A DNA stretch of 64,000 nucleotides, taken from IMG/VR virus record IMGVR_UViG_3300028797_000004. The stretch is one strand, 5' to 3'. Below, piece by piece: positions 2,030 to 64,000 of the stretch (position 1 is its first letter; every line of letters begins with the position of its first letter). Position numbers and translations under genes: made by a program. The stretch comes from a virus. Its lineage: Duplodnaviria; Caudoviricetes. The notes below the pieces were generated by a model. It was given only the letters and a program-made list of their open reading frames with translations, was not told where the DNA came from and ran no database searches.

Positions 2030-2215
2030 TGTTCCAAGATTTGTTATGGGCTGCATCAACATTATGCTTGCAGCATTGTCGTTGGTTTTAACTCAACGAG
2101 GCAAGAAGTCCCCTATCGCTAAGGTGACGGGATGAATTGCCTTATCAACTACAAAATTACCTATATTTGACTTTATGATTTATTTATGGTATTATCGCTA
2201 TAGAGGTGAGAGACA

Positions 2216-3313
2216 ATGAATAAAGCCTATAAATTCAGGATATATCCAAATGAAGAGCAAAAAATTTTGTTTGCCAAAACCTTTGGATGTGTAAGGTTCA
2301 TATATAACAAGATGTTAAGCGATAAAATAGAATATTATCATAAGACTCAGAAAAAACTGAACAATACTCCTGCACAGTATAAAACTGAGTTTGAGTGGCT
2401 GAAAGAAGTTGACAGTCTCGCACTTGCTAACGCACAGCTTAATTTACAAAAAGCGTATAATAACTTTTTCAGAGATACCAAGGTTGGCTTTCCAAAATTC
2501 AAAAGTAAAAAGCATAATCGTTATTCCTATACAACAAACAATCAACACGGAACTATATATCTATGTGATGGGTATATCAAACTCCCGAAGATAGGACTTG
2601 TTAAAATTAAACAGCACAGGAATATACCGTCTGAATACATCCTTAAATCAGTAACGGTAAGTCAGACACCGAGCGGTAAATATTATGTGAGTATTCTCTT
2701 TGAATATGAAAATCAAATATCAAAAGTCGATATCCATAACAGCCTCGGTCTTGACTATTCTATGCACGAGCTGTATGTTGACAGTGAGGGCGGTGAACCT
2801 GAATATCCCAGATACTATCGCAGAGTTGAAAAAAGGCTTCAAACAGAGCAGAGAAAACTATCCCTTATGACTAAAGGTTCTAAAAACCGTAACAAACAAA
2901 GGTTAAAGGTCGCTAAATTATGTGAGAGAATCTCCAATCAACGCAAGGATTTCCTACATAAAAAGTCAAGACAGATAGCCAATGCCTATGATCTTGTATC
3001 TGTAGAAGACCTTGATATGAAAGGACTATCTCAATCTCTGAATTTTGGAAAATCCGTATCTGATAATGGATGGGGTATGTTCATATCATTCCTTAAATAC
3101 AAACTCGAAGAGCAAGGAAAGCAACTCATAAAGGTCAGCAGATTTTTTCCAAGTTCTCAGTTATGCTCTGTATGTGGGTGTAAACACTCTATTACTAAAG
3201 ACCTTTCTGTGAGAAAATGGACCTGTCCTGACTGCGGAACGCATCACAACAGGGATGTGAATGCAGCTATAAATATAAGAAACGAAGGCTTGCGCATTGC
3301 TTTGTCAATGTAA
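2216..3313 (+). CDS. tnpB: RNA-guided endonuclease TnpB
   Basis: KAYKFRIYP HTH; RuvC residues LGLD, VEDL, RDVNAA; CSVCG...CPDCG zinc finger. Confidence 0.95.
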   Translation: MNKAYKFRIYPNEEQKILFAKTFGCVRFIYNKMLSDKIEYYHKTQKKLNNTPAQYKTEFEWLKEVDSLALANAQLNLQKAYNNFFRDTKVGFPKFKSKKHNRYSYTTNNQHGTIYLCDGYIKLPKIGLVKIKQHRNIPSEYILKSVTVSQTPSGKYYVSILFEYENQISKVDIHNSLGLDYSMHELYVDSEGGEPEYPRYYRRVEKRLQTEQRKLSLMTKGSKNRNKQRLKVAKLCERISNQRKDFLHKKSRQIANAYDLVSVEDLDMKGLSQSLNFGKSVSDNGWGMFISFLKYKLEEQGKQLIKVSRFFPSSQLCSVCGCKHSITKDLSVRKWTCPDCGTHHNRDVNAAINIRNEGLRIALSM

Positions 3314-3425
3314 TATCTTAAAGATAAAAAACCGTGGGACACACGGGGTTAGCTCGCTTATGCTTAGTACATTGGTACTATCGAACGAGAAGCCCCCGCT
3401 TCTTTAAGCGGCGGGAGTATGTCAC
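3314..3425 (+). ncRNA. omegaRNA scaffold of TnpB (5' boundary approximate)
   Basis: ACCGTGGGACACACGGGGTTAGCTCG...GAGAAGCCCCCGC...TCAC layout typical of IS605 right ends. Confidence 0.7.
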
Positions 3426-3647
3426 TTTGTAGTGGACGAAGCCATGCTTGGTTCGCGTTTATACTTTGTGCTCTTACTGGAGTTGGTGCTCTTGTAGACA
3501 GCATCGAGACTGAAAAACAAAGACAGCGAAAGATAGCGGAGCTGAAAGAAAAAGCTAGATTATACGGCTGGGATAAAGAGGGCTGAAAATATAGACAAAT
3601 ACATAAGCAAAAGAAGCTGTAGAAATAATAATTCGGAGGTGTAAGAA

Positions 3648-3860
3648 ATGAACGAAAATTTCTGGTGCAACAACAAGAAGTTACATGATAGTTGTATAGG
3701 CTGCTCTGATTTATTTATTAAGCAAACTCGCTATAATGTTATCTATTATCGATGCAATAAGCTAAGAATAGGTTTTATGCATACTATAACACCTAATGAC
3801 TTTAGTGAATACATGGATTATCTGAGTAGGAGGAGAAAAGTAAATGGCGAAAATAATTAA
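3648..3860 (+). CDS. Cys-rich hypothetical protein
   Basis: GGAGG RBS, 70 aa. Confidence 0.6.
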   Translation: MNENFWCNNKKLHDSCIGCSDLFIKQTRYNVIYYRCNKLRIGFMHTITPNDFSEYMDYLSRRRKVNGENN

Positions 3861-4038
3861 ATATGGCAGAAGACTTCTGACCACAGATAAAAGAGAAAAG
3901 TTGTTTATCTGCACTTGCTGCGACTGCAGGTGGATTGCAGAGCCTAGTGAGTATGTGACGATACGCACACCGATGAAGCCTAATACATATTCTTGGTGCC
4001 CGCATTGCGGTACTCAGACTTGGGAGCAGGAGGAATGA
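3844..4038 (+). CDS. zinc-ribbon protein
   Basis: CxCC...CPHCG; AGGAGG RBS. Confidence 0.7.
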   Translation: MAKIIKYGRRLLTTDKREKLFICTCCDCRWIAEPSEYVTIRTPMKPNTYSWCPHCGTQTWEQEE

Positions 4039-4042
4039 AAAA

Positions 4043-4246
4043 ATGAGAGATAAGTGGTTCACTGACGAAAATCCACCATCTGAAAAGGAAGATTATATGA
4101 TAACAGATGAATGTGGCGATATTCAGATAGCAAGTTGGACTAACAGTAGCATATTCGGAGGGGTAACTGACTGGCATTGGGTTGGATTGGTACAATTTAC
4201 GCACGTAAAAGCATGGCGGCCATTGCCCGAACCGTACAAGCAATAA
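4043..4246 (+). CDS. DUF551-like protein
   Basis: N-terminal W..ENPP, C-terminal VKAWRPLPEPY. Confidence 0.75.
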   Translation: MRDKWFTDENPPSEKEDYMITDECGDIQIASWTNSSIFGGVTDWHWVGLVQFTHVKAWRPLPEPYKQ

Positions 4247-4273
4247 AATTCACTCTTATGAGGAGGACTGAAA

Positions 4274-4606
4274 ATGAATAAACTCACATTGGACGAAGCT
4301 ATAAAGCGTTGTGAAGAAGCGGCAGAACTGCAAGAAGCCACCAGTCTTATAGACCGTTGGGGTGGTGATTATGAATATAGCGAAAGCGTAAAGGAGAATT
4401 GCCGTCAGTGTGCTGCTGACCACAGACAGCTTGCTGAGTGGCTGAAGGGGCTGAAAGAAGCAAAAAGTATCATTAGAGTATGCAGCCGAGTGTTAGGATT
4501 TCTGCTTGAATGTGAAATTGAAAACACATCAACACGTCACAAAGTAGAAATCTTACTGAAAAACATAGCAGAATACTTGTCAGGAGGTGATGAAAATGAC
4601 ACTTGA
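4274..4606 (+). CDS. hypothetical phage protein
   Basis: TLDEAI...HRQLAEWL module shared with the next ORF. Confidence 0.75.
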   Translation: MNKLTLDEAIKRCEEAAELQEATSLIDRWGGDYEYSESVKENCRQCAADHRQLAEWLKGLKEAKSIIRVCSRVLGFLLECEIENTSTRHKVEILLKNIAEYLSGGDENDT

Positions 4607-5105
4607 TGAAGCTATTGAATATCACATCAATGTGGCAACCCGACGTGCAGTAGCTGATGAAGGCATTGGTGGGAATGCTAAATGGGAAGAGACTAACTCT
4701 ATGACCAAGGAAGAAAGTGAGCAAATAATTGCGCATAATCGTCAGCTCGCAGAGTGGCTGACACAGTTGAAAGAGATTAAAGAAAAGATAGAAAGCGGTG
4801 ATTTATCGGACGGCTATCATACTTTCAATCAACTCTATCATCAAAGAGCTATGCTATTTGCAACTATTGTTAAACAGAATAAAGATAAAGCTTGGAAAAC
4901 GCACAAGCATGAAGACGGTAAGCTCTGTTTCGGTGGTGGTTGGTTCTTAGTAACTATTGACACACCTGAAGGCGCCTATGGCTATCATTATGAAGATAAG
5001 TATTGGGACTTATTTGACTGCCAAGAACTTGATGTAGCAAAGCACTGGGATGGCTACACAGAAGCAGACGTTAGTAGGTTTTTAAGTTTGGGAGCAAGTA
5101 GATGA
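4587..5105 (+). CDS. WDGH-like domain protein with N-terminal TLDEAI module
   Basis: SDGYHTFNQLYHQR...AWK.HKH.DG...YHY...WDG motifs. Confidence 0.7.
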   Translation: MMKMTLDEAIEYHINVATRRAVADEGIGGNAKWEETNSMTKEESEQIIAHNRQLAEWLTQLKEIKEKIESGDLSDGYHTFNQLYHQRAMLFATIVKQNKDKAWKTHKHEDGKLCFGGGWFLVTIDTPEGAYGYHYEDKYWDLFDCQELDVAKHWDGYTEADVSRFLSLGASR

Positions 5106-31292: not shown

Positions 31293-32309
31293 ATGTCCTT
31301 AGCAACTAAATACAGACCTAAGACTCTGTCTGAAATGGTGGAACAATCTCTAGTTGTTAACATCATTGAGAAGATGTGTGAGTCCGAATTAACCAATAGA
31401 AACTTCCTGTTTATTGGGCCTGCAGGCTGTGGAAAGACGACTATCTGTCGTGCTGTCGGCAATCAGCTTAATAGTAACACCGGTAATATCATTGAAGTAG
31501 ATGCAGCTACTTACAGCGGTGTTGAGAAAATTCGTGAGATCTTATCTCAAGCAAAAACATACCCGATTGGTAGTAAGTACAAGATCTTTATCATAGACGA
31601 GTGTCATGCGCTATCTTCACAATCTTGGCAGGCTATGCTCAAGGTACTAGAGGAGAGCCCTGCTATGTCTGTAATCATGCTGTGTACTACTAACCCTGAG
31701 AAGATTCCTGTTACTATCCTCTCTCGTGTACAGACATTTCAGCTATCTAAGATCAGCCTAGACGGTATCATCAACAGATTGAAGTATGTCATCGACTGTG
31801 AAAATAAGGAAGGTCGTCATATCACTTATACTGATGATGCTATTGCACTGATCGCTAAATTAGCTAATGGTGGTATGCGCGACAGTTTAACTAACCTAGA
31901 TCAGGTGCTTGCTTACAGTGAGGAGATTAATTCTGAATCTGTAGCTGCTGCACTGAACCTTCCGAGCTATGATGATTATTTCGCCATGCTTAGCGCAATC
32001 ACAAAGCATAACAACGAGAAAATCACAGACCTGGTAGACAAGGTGTATAACTCCGGTGTAAATTTTGTCAAATGGTTTGAAGGTTTCCATTCATTCGTTA
32101 TAAATATTGTAAAATATATCCAACTCAAGGATATATCAAGAACAATGATTCCTGCACATTATGTAGACAAAATCTCTAAATACACTGAAGCACATTCAGC
32201 TGTATGCTTACGATTATCTCAAGTACTGCTGAAGCTCGTACATGAGCTCAAAGGTACTAATTACCAGCAAGAGGTTGCACTTACATACTTGTGTGAGACG
32301 AAGAGGTGA
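31293..32309 (+). CDS. dnaX: clamp loader gamma/tau subunit
   Basis: SLATKYRP, GPAGCGKTT, EVDAA, IIDECHALS, LKVLEE, TILSR, GGMRDSL..LDQ. Confidence 0.9.
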   Translation: MSLATKYRPKTLSEMVEQSLVVNIIEKMCESELTNRNFLFIGPAGCGKTTICRAVGNQLNSNTGNIIEVDAATYSGVEKIREILSQAKTYPIGSKYKIFIIDECHALSSQSWQAMLKVLEESPAMSVIMLCTTNPEKIPVTILSRVQTFQLSKISLDGIINRLKYVIDCENKEGRHITYTDDAIALIAKLANGGMRDSLTNLDQVLAYSEEINSESVAAALNLPSYDDYFAMLSAITKHNNEKITDLVDKVYNSGVNFVKWFEGFHSFVINIVKYIQLKDISRTMIPAHYVDKISKYTEAHSAVCLRLSQVLLKLVHELKGTNYQQEVALTYLCETKR

Positions 32310-39550: not shown

Positions 39551-39633
39551 GCCTATGTGGTGAAACTGGCAGACACAGCGGACTCAAAATCCGCCTCGCA
39601 AGAGTGCAGGTTCGACTCCTGTCATAGGCACCA
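39551..39633 (+). tRNA. tRNA-Leu(CAA)
   Basis: GCCTATG/CATAGGC acceptor stem, GCGGA-CTCAAAA-TCCGC anticodon arm, long variable arm, GGTTCGACTCC, encoded CCA. Confidence 0.95.
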
Positions 39634-59745: not shown

Positions 59746-61356
59746 ATGGCTGAACTCAATGCTGAGCAGAAAGCTGCTGTAGAGTGCACAGATAGAAAAA
59801 TAGTTTGTATTGCAGGCGCAGGCGCAGGCAAGACCAAAACATTAGTTTCTAGATTGATACATCAAGTAGTTGGTGGCGCTGATGCAACTCATATGTTAGT
59901 GCTCACATTTACAAATGCTGCTGCACAAGAAATGAAAGCTCGATACATCGCTGCTGCACCTGAATTTGATGTACCAACCTTCGGAACATTCCATTCATTC
60001 TGTTATTCACTACTTGTAAATCCTGACATACGCAACGCTCTTGGCTATACAGATGTGCCTACAGTAGCTACACCTGAAGACATTAAATTCTGTAACTCAC
60101 AAGCTAAGCTGATAACAAGACCTAAGCTTCTTGAATCTGAAATGTCTGGTGACGGAGAGAATCTACCTTCATCTAAGAAGCGAGATTACGAGACGTTCAA
60201 GCGTTGTAGAGATAAGCTTCTGCGACAGAGAGGTCTTATCACATTTGATATGATGTGCTACGACATAGGTCAGCTGTTTATCAATGATGAAGCTTGTGTG
60301 CAGCCGATAAAGCGTAGATATGAGTATGTGGTGTGCGACGAGATGCAAGATTCAGACAAACGGCAGATGTCGTTTCTTAAGTCTTTTAAAGATGCAAACT
60401 TATTTGTGGTAGGTGATGCCAAACAGAATCTATATAGCTTCCGAGGTACAACTAACAGGATAATCAAATCGCTTGCTGAATCTGATGAGTGGACAACAAT
60501 CAAGATGTATAAGAACTACAGATGCACAGAAGAAATATGCGAGTTTGCTAACAAGATTCATAAAAGTTGGGGAGATTCTCCTTACAACTTAGCAATACAT
60601 AGTGATAAGCATGATCCGGATTCTGTACATTTTATGCCCGCTTCCGAAGCTTATGAAGTAACCCCTTTGTATTTGTTAGAGATTACACAGAATTCTGATA
60701 AGGAGTCAATTGCATTCTTAGTTCGTACTAATGCAGAAGTAGCTTCGCTTGTAGATAAATGCAAGGCAGTTGGCGTGAAGTATCACACTAATAGTTCCGC
60801 TGACTGGCGAGCTTCCATGCTGCTGGCGTTACAAGATGAGCAGTATGCTATTACCTGGCTGCCGTCAGTACTTAATGCTACTAAGTATAACAATTATCTG
60901 CGGGCGTGCATACTTAATCCGGAATATAAAACTATCATAGGCTTACAGCATTTCACAAGTGAGGACGAAGTGTTTGCTGAGAGATACGGGACATATCTTA
61001 CGCTTAAAACACTACTTGACACAAATATATCTGTATTTCAGAAGTATAAGTCAATCACAGAGAAGCTTGACCTCCCATTTGACGTAGCTGACACACCCGA
61101 TACTGTTGAAGGTATATTTGATCTCCTCAATACTAAACTTGGTAGCGCAACTACTGATGAAGGTGTTTACATCGGTACAATACATTCGTCAAAAGGACTT
61201 GAATACGATACTGTGCACTTGTTCGGCGTAGGCGGATCCAGCTTCCAGATCTCCGACGAGGACTCAAAGAATGTCTTCTATGTAGGATGCACAAGAGCTA
61301 AGAATAATCTTTATATCTATTCGGATAAATATAGAAAGGATGATGAAGAATGCTAG
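59746..61356 (+). CDS. UvrD/PcrA-like SF1 helicase
   Basis: LNAEQ, AGAGAGKT, TFTNAAA, TFHSF, DEMQD, VGDAKQ.LY.FRG, NYR, TIHSSKGLEYD, YVGCTRAK. Confidence 0.93.
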   Translation: MAELNAEQKAAVECTDRKIVCIAGAGAGKTKTLVSRLIHQVVGGADATHMLVLTFTNAAAQEMKARYIAAAPEFDVPTFGTFHSFCYSLLVNPDIRNALGYTDVPTVATPEDIKFCNSQAKLITRPKLLESEMSGDGENLPSSKKRDYETFKRCRDKLLRQRGLITFDMMCYDIGQLFINDEACVQPIKRRYEYVVCDEMQDSDKRQMSFLKSFKDANLFVVGDAKQNLYSFRGTTNRIIKSLAESDEWTTIKMYKNYRCTEEICEFANKIHKSWGDSPYNLAIHSDKHDPDSVHFMPASEAYEVTPLYLLEITQNSDKESIAFLVRTNAEVASLVDKCKAVGVKYHTNSSADWRASMLLALQDEQYAITWLPSVLNATKYNNYLRACILNPEYKTIIGLQHFTSEDEVFAERYGTYLTLKTLLDTNISVFQKYKSITEKLDLPFDVADTPDTVEGIFDLLNTKLGSATTDEGVYIGTIHSSKGLEYDTVHLFGVGGSSFQISDEDSKNVFYVGCTRAKNNLYIYSDKYRKDDEEC

Positions 61357-61868: not shown

Positions 61869-62241
61869 GTCAGATTTCACTAGAGATATTGAACTTCGTG
61901 CAAGGAAGATGCTGAAGACAAAAGCATTTCTTTCAGAGTTTGCTAAGCATCTGTCAGGGCTGAAAGAGTTCAGCAAGGTGGAGTATGAAGTGACAATTGA
62001 TGCTGCGGGCTATGTGAAAGCAAATGTTGACAGATTAATCAGTGTTTCACACAATAGCCGAAACAAGACAAATCTTATAACTCATATTCTACTTCTGCAC
62101 TGCTCTTCAGAAGATTCACAATTAGGGATACATGGTGACGGTAGCAGGTACCGATTAAACTTATCGCAGTATGTGATAGGTACATATAAGTATGAGCTGT
62201 CATCAACAGGTAAGACTCGGCATTGGAGGAAAATATCATGA
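61861..62241 (+). CDS. hypothetical protein
   Basis: GGAGGTG RBS before ATG 61861. Confidence 0.65.
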   Translation: MNRSDFTRDIELRARKMLKTKAFLSEFAKHLSGLKEFSKVEYEVTIDAAGYVKANVDRLISVSHNSRNKTNLITHILLLHCSSEDSQLGIHGDGSRYRLNLSQYVIGTYKYELSSTGKTRHWRKIS

Positions 62242-62606
62242 GAAAGCGATTTTCAAATACAGTGGTGTGCGGACGCTCAGTTCAAGTAGGTAACTTCTAT
62301 CGAAGCTACAATGGTACTTGTGTTGAAGTCATTGCTATCGCAGAGAATGTAGAAACTGGTCAAGAGATGGTCGTCTATCGTACTCGTCACGAACAGAAAC
62401 GTGAAATTGACGATATGATTCTCACTTGTACTGCCGAGGCATTCTTGAGTGATGTGCAAGTTGGTGGTGTAACCAAGACTCGATATCGTGAGGTACTGAT
62501 AGGCGTAACACGTTTTCACGATAAAGAGTGGGTAGAGCTTCTTGAATCGTCACCTATGCGATCACGTCACATGATAAGTTTTGAAACGCAGGAGGGGGCT
62601 CAGTAG
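62238..62606 (+). CDS. DUF1653-like protein
   Basis: G.FYR.Y.G...EV..IA...ET.QEMVVYR. Confidence 0.7.
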
Positions 62607-63730
62607 TGTTTAGATCATTTAGATTTCGATTGCATTTATCTACATTTCAGTCCGCACAAGTTCGACAAACATTCGGCTGTTGCCGATTTGTCTACAATTA
62701 TTTTCTAGCGGATTCTATCAAACAATACAAAGCTGACAAACAAAGCTTCAACTTATTTCAAAGTTTCAAGCAGCTTTCAGCAATGAGGAAGCTGTCAGAG
62801 TACAGCTGGTTACAACAAGCTGATAGCGAAGCTTTGAGATATGCTTTGAAGCAGCTGAACTCAGCTTACCAAAATTTCTTCAGAAGTTTGGAGTCAGATA
62901 AACATATATGCTTTCCGAAGTTCAAATTTAAACGATTTGCAAAGCAAACATATACAACATCGGCTGTGAACGAAGCTACATTCCGTATTGAAAACAATAA
63001 GATTTTCATACCTAAATTAGGGTTTGTTAAATTCCGAGGTCGTCAACATATGCAAGGCAAACCGATTCATGCTACAATCTCAAGGTCTGCAACTGGAAAA
63101 TATTATATTTCTGTTGTTTGCAAAGATGTTCAAATTGATAAGTTACCTGAAACGCATCAAAGTGTAGGTATAGATTTAGGTCTGAAAGATTTTGCAATCA
63201 CCTCAGACAGAGAAAAATTCTCAAATCCAAAATTCTTCGCAAAATACCAAAAACAGCTTGCAAAAGCTCAAAGAAAGCTGTCCCGAAAACCAAAGGGCAG
63301 CCATAACTTCGAGAAGCAAAAGCTGAGAGTTGCAAGAATTCACGAGAAAATTACAAACTGTCGAACAGATTTCTTGCAGAAGCTATCAACAAGTTTGATT
63401 CGCAGATATGATATCCTCTGCATTGAAGACCTGTCAGTGCAAGGCATGATGCAGAATCATAAGCTTGCAAAATCAATTGCGGATGTTTCTTGGTCACGAT
63501 TTGTATCAATGCTGAGCTACAAAGCTGAGTGGTATGGTAGAACTCTCCAGAAAATCAACAAGTTCTATCCAAGTTCACAATTGTGCAGCTGCTGCGGGCA
63601 TCAGAATCCAGATGTCAAAGACTTAGCAGTTCGCAGATGGATCTGCCCACAGTGCAACACAGAACACGACAGAGATACCAACGCAGCGAAAAACATTTTA
63701 GCTGAAGGTCTCAGATTACTTTCAGCTTAA
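62606..63730 (+). CDS. tnpB: TnpB RNA-guided nuclease lacking a transposon left end
   Basis: HTH FRFRL...FGCCRFVYN; RuvC GIDLG, IEDL, DRDTNAA; CSCCG...CPQC. Confidence 0.93.
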
Positions 63731-63739
63731 AATCGTTAT

Positions 63740-63840
63740 GATACGGTGAGCCACACCGGAATTCACGCCTTTGGAGATCTGATAAGACTTGCGCGCAAGC
63801 GCAAGCAAGGTCGTCGAACAAGGAAGAAACAGATTGTTTC
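63740..63840 (+). ncRNA. omegaRNA-like scaffold of the second TnpB (ends approximate)
   Basis: ACGGTGAGCCACACCGGAATTCACGCCTTTGGAGA...TAAGAC...GTCG.CGAACAAGGAA resembles sequence commonly found 3' of tnpB. Confidence 0.6.
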
Positions 63841-63896
63841 GTGGCGTTATAGAATACATACAAATCTACTGTTACTGAATGGAAGGAGTAACTACT

Positions 63897-64000
63897 ATGT
63901 ATAAAATTCAAAGCATAGAAATTCAGGGTCTGCACAATGTGATGCATGAGAAATACGACCTTGATAATTTCAATTATTTCTACGGCAAGAATGGCGCAGG
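63897..64000 (+). CDS. SbcC/Rad50-like ATPase, 5' part (truncated by window)
   Basis: MYKIQSIEIQGLHN...NYFYGKNGAG (start of Walker A); AAGGAG RBS. Confidence 0.7.
   Translation, partial: MYKIQSIEIQGLHNVMHEKYDLDNFNYFYGKNGA

Follow-up and report, generated by a model that had tools for sequence, protein, structure and literature searches.

A polymorphic TnpB–omegaRNA cassette without transposase or usable transposon ends in a large phage: a candidate RNA-guided homing element of IS607-type descent

TnpB helps transposons persist by cutting the site that they leave behind. This study concerns a tnpB gene near the end of a 64,000-nt stretch of phage DNA (hereafter the window; IMG/VR record IMGVR_UViG_3300028797_000004; Duplodnaviria, Caudoviricetes), which belongs to a phage of ~149 kb. 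In the insertion sequence (IS) ISDra2, bases -6 to -2 form a pseudoknot with the stem-1 loop of the omegaRNA, and one base separates them from the guide (PMC10097598). IS607 elements end in GG and integrate at or after a target GG (PMC13565253). Spread that was independent of TnpA and dependent on TnpB was reported on plasmids (Mears 2025, as summarised in PMC13565253), and the same review treats spread between co-infecting phages as theoretical. The tnpB gene of the window and its omegaRNA form an inserted cassette of 1275 bp at 62570–63844 (+ strand). On the comparisons below, this cassette has a somewhat better than even claim to be a selfish, free-standing RNA-guided homing element.

The extent of the cassette was determined by base-level comparison with contigs in which the site is empty. 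A 172-aa protein, whose gene lies two places upstream, was used as the query and retrieved ten contigs; they come from near-identical phages, with nucleotide identities of 93–97%. The insertion site at the DUF1653 stop codon (site A) was empty, with no tnpB, in all eight of the near-identical contigs that span it. BLAST alignment of the window with the empty-site loci L003, L004, L006 and L008 ended at 62565–62569 and restarted at 63845; the borders carry an uncertainty of ~3 nt, since a few letters are shared at each junction (left TGAT, right CGT). The cassette took the place of 6 bp (TTGATT) present in the empty allele. The empty site consists of a 111-aa DUF1653 gene, 55 bp, and then a 606-aa SbcC/SMC-like gene, with the native stop and the phage motif described below undamaged. 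Since the six replaced bases hold the native TGA stop, the DUF1653 frame of the window runs on through 11 insert codons to a TAG, and the gene has 122 aa in the window against 111 aa in the eight relatives. The exact TnpB protein was on record in three contigs only, and the same genes flanked it in all of them. The insertion at the DUF1653 stop is recent and unfixed.

A preliminary description of this DNA had taken the locus for a domesticated phage gene that was no longer an IS. It had itself named clean empty sites in close relatives as the finding that would count against domestication, and such sites were found in eight of eight. The loss of what a transposase requires was borne out; the status of phage gene was not, the site being empty in those relatives. 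An RNA-guided homing endonuclease, which the description had offered as one possible role, is the reading preferred below. The reported overlap of the tnpB start with the upstream stop was confirmed: the GTG (62606–62608) and the TAG (62604–62606) have the G at 62606 in common, with GGAGG 10 nt upstream. This ribosome-binding site (RBS) had been placed inside the DUF1653 gene, which was a misassignment, as the empty sites identify 62570–62605 as insert DNA and the native gene has 111 aa. The appearance of operon coupling with no room for a left end arises from the landing place of the insert and its own RBS, and is therefore no evidence of domestication.

The TnpB encoded by the cassette was compared with its family. 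D190, E274 and D357 and the four zinc-finger cysteines (CxxC...CxxC) were invariant in a 21-sequence family alignment, so that the RuvC acidic triad and zinc finger are intact, as had been described. These residues matched the catalytic motifs of ISDra2 TnpB, which was also the best solved homolog (E 2.5e-99). The nuclease and its guide RNA look functional.

The closest TnpB homolog among 5.8 billion proteins was found on contig L001, from a sister phage. Identity between the two was 78% over the 335 aa called and 76% over the full-length alignment. The L001 copy is located at another site (site B), between the 3′ end of a clamp-loader gene and the following gene, and its insertion cost no phage base. 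Site B was empty in the window (32290–32300) and in eight of nine other relatives, that is, in 9 of 10. Site A was empty in L003, which comes from the same sample as L001. In the L001 copy, only ~15 nt precede the ATG; very short leaders are therefore normal in this cassette lineage.

Over the part between residue ~124 and the C-terminus, protein identity between the window and L001 copies was 93% and DNA identity about 90%, and the BLAST identity began at 62977. The first ~124 residues had 41% amino acid identity with unalignable DNA, and neither N-terminus was closer to the other than to the rest of the family. Both genes are thus mosaics, since their N-terminal modules are unrelated and the remainder is near-identical. 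The recombination breakpoint (window 62606–62976 versus L001:9884–10254) was located at the REC/WED boundary, at residue ~124. Residues 1 to ~124 correspond to the REC-bearing module, which in ISDra2 TnpB holds five of the seven residues contacting the target-adjacent motif (TAM) (PMC10097598). At these five positions the window TnpB has L50, F54, S74, E75 and R78, against Y52, S56, K76, F77 and Q80 in ISDra2; S, S, S, T and V were read for L001 from a pairwise alignment. The alignments indicate an exchange of the whole putative TAM-reading module, with the RuvC core and the scaffold left constant. Because the five REC residues differ, the TAM of the window copy is probably not that of L001, and TTGAT is unlikely to be the TAM of either.

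In the omegaRNA scaffold after the tnpB stop, window and L001 differed at 6 of 95 nt, whereas 39% of synonymous sites differed (pS 0.39). Compensatory changes were detected by RNAalifold in 10 of 13 scaffold pairs among 17 relatives. The scaffold matched no Rfam family, RAGATH-18 included. In IS605-type relatives a GC-rich hairpin comes next, and the elements end in GTTCA(A/C) or TGTCA(A/C). The preliminary description had stated that the GC-rich right-end hairpin and TCAC/TCAA were replaced in the cassette, and this proved correct, an AT-rich hairpin standing there instead. L001 has no hairpin at that place. Subterminal hairpins and a right cleavage site of TCAC/TCAA type were absent from both the cassette and L001, and both were present in the relatives.

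The guide was predicted from a pseudoknot rule. In 21 of 25 relatives, the stem-1 loop pairs with right-end bases -6 to -3, with 3.5 or 4 of the 4 positions matched; loops of GAAC accompany GUUC ends, and loops of GACA accompany UGUC ends. The tail of the cassette has a single candidate strand for this pairing (Table 1). In L001, the pairing is kept by change on both sides (63753 A/G, tail U/C). The two unrelated cassette tails thus keep the pseudoknot, because the L001 tail carries the change matching its loop. When the rule was applied to L001, its right end was placed so that the following flank was exact empty-site sequence, in canonical geometry. The predicted guide would begin at 63847 or 63848, given the pseudoknot position and the usual two linker bases, as in the relatives and ISDra2. 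Three other assignments were rejected. A pseudoknot with bases after stem 1 was dropped in favour of the stem-1 loop, on the published geometry (PMC10097598) and the test on 25 relatives. A guide directly after the conserved scaffold was discarded; such words had no match elsewhere in the window or in the loci, and the tails contain the pseudoknot strand instead. TTGAT lies one base before the empty-allele junction and, in L001, shortly before the start codon; it was rejected as a TAM, as the residues that read it are not conserved and the pseudoknot puts the target 2–3 nt further right.

The ancestry of the cassette was investigated with a quick maximum-likelihood tree of the TnpB family, with support from the Shimodaira–Hasegawa-like approximate likelihood-ratio test (SH-aLRT). 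The window and L001 copies grouped together with a support of 100, within a 12-member clade with an SH-aLRT of 97. The hairpin-ended IS605-type elements fell outside this clade. The examined clade loci came from large phages distantly related to the window phage (35–60% protein identity in syntenic genes), and their omegaRNA scaffolds were alike at the nucleotide level. L123 encodes a 200-aa TnpA with MerR helix-turn-helix and Resolvase domains that overlaps the tnpB start, which is the IS607 organisation. L013 retains the last 48 codons of the recombinase gene (76% identity, E 2e-23), and L122 has a leader of ~33 nt; for the L013 element, an empty site was not found. Because the clade holds the full element of L123 and the remnant of L013, the cassette is best described, by this comparison, as a 5′-truncated IS607-family derivative without the recombinase or the entire left end.

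No serine-recombinase tnpA is present in the cassette. Its 36-nt leader may represent what is left of one, the final codons plus spacer; it shows a weak likeness to the tnpA 3′ end, over ~4 codons only, and in relatives tnpA ends at or overlaps the tnpB start. The cassette ends on the right in GG at 63843–63844, and the right end of L001 can also be placed after GG. A GG dinucleotide at the junction was found in neither empty target (sites A and B), and on this ground insertion in the manner of IS607 was regarded as unlikely. The reported lack of tnpA was also confirmed for the Y1 type: tblastn with the TnpA proteins of relatives found none in the window (best E 0.13). An IStron arrangement, with a group I intron upstream of tnpB, was not found, as 36 nt precede tnpB and no intron family was detected in the window at Rfam gathering scores. 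INPHARED contained no near DNA match for the cassette, and searches by protein and exact scaffold word revealed no further copies or relatives in IMG/VR or the JGI metagenomes.

The recurring motif that had been noticed from 63731 onwards, AATCGTTA, was counted over the window. It occurred 11 times against 1.85 expected, none of 100 shuffles reached 11, and 10 of the 11 copies were on the + (coding) strand. Most copies were intergenic, abutting or overlapping the stop codon of the preceding gene. The sites in the window include 1026, 5916, 11342, 21424, 54760, 58613, 59664 and 63731. The motif was kept at homologous sites of relatives with varying adjoining bases, and ATTCGTTA was accepted as a variant; occurrences of either form were recorded in L003/L004/L006, L013:2924, L122:5741 and L123:1822. 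AATCGTTA was also found in intergenic DNA of distant phages of the family, and in L123 directly 3′ of the tnpB stop. At the empty site A, a ATTCGTTA variant overlaps the DUF1653 stop. The insertion split that copy in two, and the cassette brings a perfect AATCGTTA 114 nt upstream of the old motif position. The eight motif bases were unchanged between the window and L001 cassettes, and three adjacent bases differed. AATCGTTA is a real motif common to the phage family and stands ahead of the omegaRNA.

The function of the motif was considered. No sigma-70-type promoter was predicted at 63731, and this meaning of the motif was rejected. That AATCGTTA acts as a promoter of another kind is a hypothesis; a phage-encoded sigma factor or RNA polymerase may use it as a promoter, or it may mark a site of processing. 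In L123, a 14-nt word beginning with AATCGTTA occurs twice, upstream of the recombinase gene at 1822–1835 and past the tnpB stop at 3634–3647. Another word, of ~11 nt plus GTG, stands shortly before the start of the recombinase (~1905) and again in the right tail (~3745). Both of these repeated words of L123 may be recombinase-binding repeats.

Table 1. Features of the cassette and of the adjoining genes; positions are those of the window.
Feature	Position	Strand	Remarks
DUF1653 open reading frame	62238–62606	+	Pfam DUF1653; native part to 62569, last 11 sense codons and stop from the insert
Cassette leader, 36 nt	62570–62605	+	own RBS GGAGG at 62591–62595; not in empty sites
tnpB, 374 aa, GTG start	62606–63730	+	HTH_OrfB_IS605, OrfB_IS605 and Cas12f1-like_TNB domains (Pfam)
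N-terminal module of TnpB (first WED strand and REC domain, residues 1 to ~124)	62606–62976	+	unrelated to the sister copy at the DNA level
AATCGTTA	63731–63738	+	follows the tnpB stop without a gap; possible promoter or processing site serving the omegaRNA and the downstream gene
omegaRNA scaffold	63744–63825	+	alignment with 17 relatives, RNAalifold and minimum-free-energy fold
Scaffold stem 1	63744–63748/63754–63758		loop 63749–63753
Scaffold stem 2	63768–63771/63820–63823		long-range
Scaffold inner helix	63776–63778/63810–63812		
Scaffold stem 3	63788–63794/63799–63805		GCAA loop; variable in the consensus
AT-rich hairpin, 6 bp with 3-nt loop	63826–63840	+	in place of the GC-rich stem 4 / transposase-binding hairpin
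Predicted pseudoknot 3′ strand	63841–63845	+	pairs with 63750–63754; sole 4-of-4 loop complement in the tail; straddles the junction
Predicted guide, 16 nt	63847–63862	+	start ±1–2 nt; lies in phage flank ahead of the SbcC-like gene; same bases in empty allele 1
Start of SbcC/SMC-like ATPase gene	63897–64000	+	606 aa in full contigs; AAA_23, SMC_N

Homing would proceed in the following way. An IS607-type element with a serine-recombinase tnpA and tnpB would have circulated in the phage family, and the cassette would descend from it by loss of the recombinase and left end. TnpB would load an RNA that starts near the 63731 motif and ends in a ~16-nt guide taken from the phage flank (~63847–63862). 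In co-infection with an empty-site relative, the TnpB complex would cut the empty site, and recombinational repair from the filled genome would copy the cassette in; the free-standing endonuclease genes of T4 home in this way. Genomes already filled would be spared, as the insert replaces bases upstream of the target. The RBS of the cassette, its co-orientation and its motif copy would keep the neighbouring genes expressed and so lower its cost.

This mechanism is preferred because a transposase has no substrate here, although the nuclease is maintained together with its scaffold and pseudoknot. Three different sites carry short cassettes of the clade, and the cassette is present or absent at a single site in genomes that are otherwise near-identical, as homing genes are. 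The population also bears the inteins and the split helicase gene described below, a setting in keeping with homing. Since all eight relatives are empty at site A and the sister copy is elsewhere, tnpB is neither fixed nor a phage core gene. As far as its sequence context indicates, the cassette is parasitic and mobile, and has not been tamed into a phage gene. A wider proposal is put forward tentatively: an IS607-derived TnpB–omegaRNA lineage may have specialised on one phage family as RNA-guided homing genes without transposase or ends. It would express its guide from the promoter-like motif of that family, which would restore downstream transcription, and would change its TAM preference by REC-module swap.

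Several observations weigh against homing. The purifying selection on tnpB (dN/dS 0.06, the ratio of nonsynonymous to synonymous rates, with dS 0.56, against the sister copy over residues 124–374), in itself a sign of intact machinery, was measured on a branch possibly mostly older than the loss of the recombinase. The REC residues by which ISDra2 reads TTGAT are not conserved in the window TnpB, and the empty-allele bases before the predicted target, ATTCG, are no known TAM. The three natural empty alleles, of L004, L008 and L003 type, do differ in the predicted target and in the bases before it, but the local density of single-nucleotide polymorphisms at site A was not clearly over background; an excess of target variation as a sign of resistance was rejected, as 6 and 5 per 20 nt were equalled by bins 100–140 nt upstream. 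Co-conversion tracts would have to be sought with one filled haplotype per site in the data. The 6-bp replacement makes the junction not clean, and it fits a full-length insertion with later deletion too. Such a history would make the cassette an immobile relic, which is rather unlikely but has real points in its favour: a full IS607-type insertion would later have lost its left end, tnpA and 6 bp, and vertical inheritance and phage recombination would account for its distribution, TnpB having no role in spread. The clade shows stepwise 5′ truncation (full in L123, 48 codons in L013, short leaders in L122, window and L001), the left junction lost 6 bp with a continuous right side, and solo tnpB genes are generally common. 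Decay of this kind is harder to reconcile with three short-leader cassettes at three sites with flanking phage genes essentially intact, and with site B, which loses no base. It also leaves the intact nuclease, scaffold and pseudoknot with their compensatory tail change, and the low occupancy at both sites is as for a young insertion.

Movement in trans, by a Y1 TnpA of the host or of the family of the second element of this phage (2092–3425), or by a serine recombinase, is very unlikely. The same phage does carry that IS605-type element with hairpin ends, canonical TnpB insertion sequences hop between lytic Bacillus and Enterococcus phages, and the right end of the cassette finishes in GG as in most IS607 members (PMC13565253). 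A Y1 enzyme would, however, find neither subterminal hairpins nor a TCAC/TCAA motif, and a serine recombinase would find no left end and no GG in either target. The 6 bp were replaced, unlike the clean insertion in the Bacillus phage SPG24. Domestication, as a phage gene fixed in the UvrD-SbcC operon with a guide driven by a phage promoter, for instance against host or competitor DNA, is highly improbable. It would account for the co-orientation, the start/stop coupling, the phage-type motif after the stop, the intact catalysis and the lack of transposase and ends. However, site A is empty in all eight spanning near-identical relatives and the nearest copy is at another site; the coupling and RBS are supplied by the insert, and the predicted guide is the adjoining flank, as in any TnpB element.

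Other mobile sequences were observed in these phages. Inteins with LAGLIDADG matches were found in the clamp loader (L104 and L111, 752 aa, where the match was faint) and in RecA (L103, 735 aa) of relatives. In L001, a PolA intein at 2167–4758 gave an intein-splicing match and a weak HNH match. The population carries several mobile protein introns, since the intein-bearing genes are shorter in other members. A UvrD-like helicase gene is split in three relatives (L004:3532–5156, L005 and L010) by an insertion of ~1.5 kb with a 325-aa open reading frame on the opposite strand. The split is equivalent to window ~60160–60380, and the window helicase gene (59746–61356) is unbroken. The sole Rfam family found in the window at gathering score was a tRNA gene at 39551–39630.

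As a filled/empty pair that occurs in nature, the locus lends itself to tests of RNA-guided homing between phages. It provides natural material for this purpose: an apparently intact nuclease and guide RNA, no transposase or usable ends, and three empty alleles. The sister copy adds another REC domain on the same RuvC core and scaffold, at another site. If homing is true, the cassette would stand beside the classic phage homing endonucleases as their RNA-guided equivalent, and the domain swap in the sister copy would amount to a natural experiment on retargeting of the TAM. If there is no homing, the locus is a record of the decay of an IS607-type element in phage genomes. Its specific interest is in the end-less IS607 ancestry, the REC-module swap, the pseudoknot kept in unrelated tails, and the shared phage motif.

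The cassette was finally compared with the known systems. It resembles the IS607 element of L123 in TnpB clade (SH-aLRT 97), in a scaffold alike at the nucleotide level, in the motif after the tnpB stop, in hairpin-free ends and in a right end of GG. It differs from IS607 in having no recombinase, no left end, a target without GG and six replaced target bp, and therefore cannot transpose as IS607. With ISDra2 TnpB (PDB 8EXA/8H1J; PMC10097598) it has in common the catalytic triad, the zinc finger, the layout of stems 1, 2 and 3 and the guide-adjacent pseudoknot. In contrast to ISDra2, it has no Y1 transposase, stem 4 is cut down to the 15-nt AT hairpin, and all five TTGAT-reading REC residues are different; the TAM of the window TnpB is probably different from that of ISDra2.

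The second TnpB of the window (2216–3313) is 39% identical to that of the cassette. The element that carries it, 2092–3425, had been proposed as an internal contrast and serves well as one, with classical ends of IS605 type: a GC hairpin, a TGTCAC terminus and a loop–tail pseudoknot GACA:UGUC. It appears to split a small open reading frame that starts at ~2017 and resumes after 3425, and its exact protein was found in the same phage context only. Look-ups of the genes next to this element yielded no contexts of use. The element of Bacillus phage SPG24 (L119 1153–2693) is likewise in a large phage and polymorphic among close relatives, its site being empty in phiNIT1 and many relatives, and its TnpB has ~46% identity. 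It differs by a left end of ~300 bp, a GC hairpin and a GTTCAA terminus, and it is inserted cleanly after TTTAT with no target loss. One canonical TnpB insertion sequence was 99% identical at different sites of SPG24-like, KKP_4049 and phiNIT1 Bacillus phages, and 90.6% identical in Enterococcus phage iF6. These copies indicate that the canonical element is common to large phages of different host genera. By sequence features, the cassette is unlike SPG24 in every transposon-specific feature and keeps every nuclease-specific one.

The proposed mechanism is the same as that for the plasmid IS605 of Mears 2025 (as summarised in PMC13565253), in which the empty homolog is cut and then repaired from the filled copy. 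That summary concerns a laboratory plasmid with a complete IS, whereas the present case is a natural phage cassette without transposase and ends. The Seg and Mob genes of T4-like phages likewise lie between conserved genes, co-oriented and start/stop-coupled, and are present or absent among near-identical phages. They recognise their targets by protein, whereas the cassette would use a guide RNA. Exapted TnpBs (TldR and other immobilised forms; PMC10705468, PMC10691335) also have no transposase. They are fixed and mostly nuclease-dead, whereas the cassette is polymorphic and its catalytic residues are intact.

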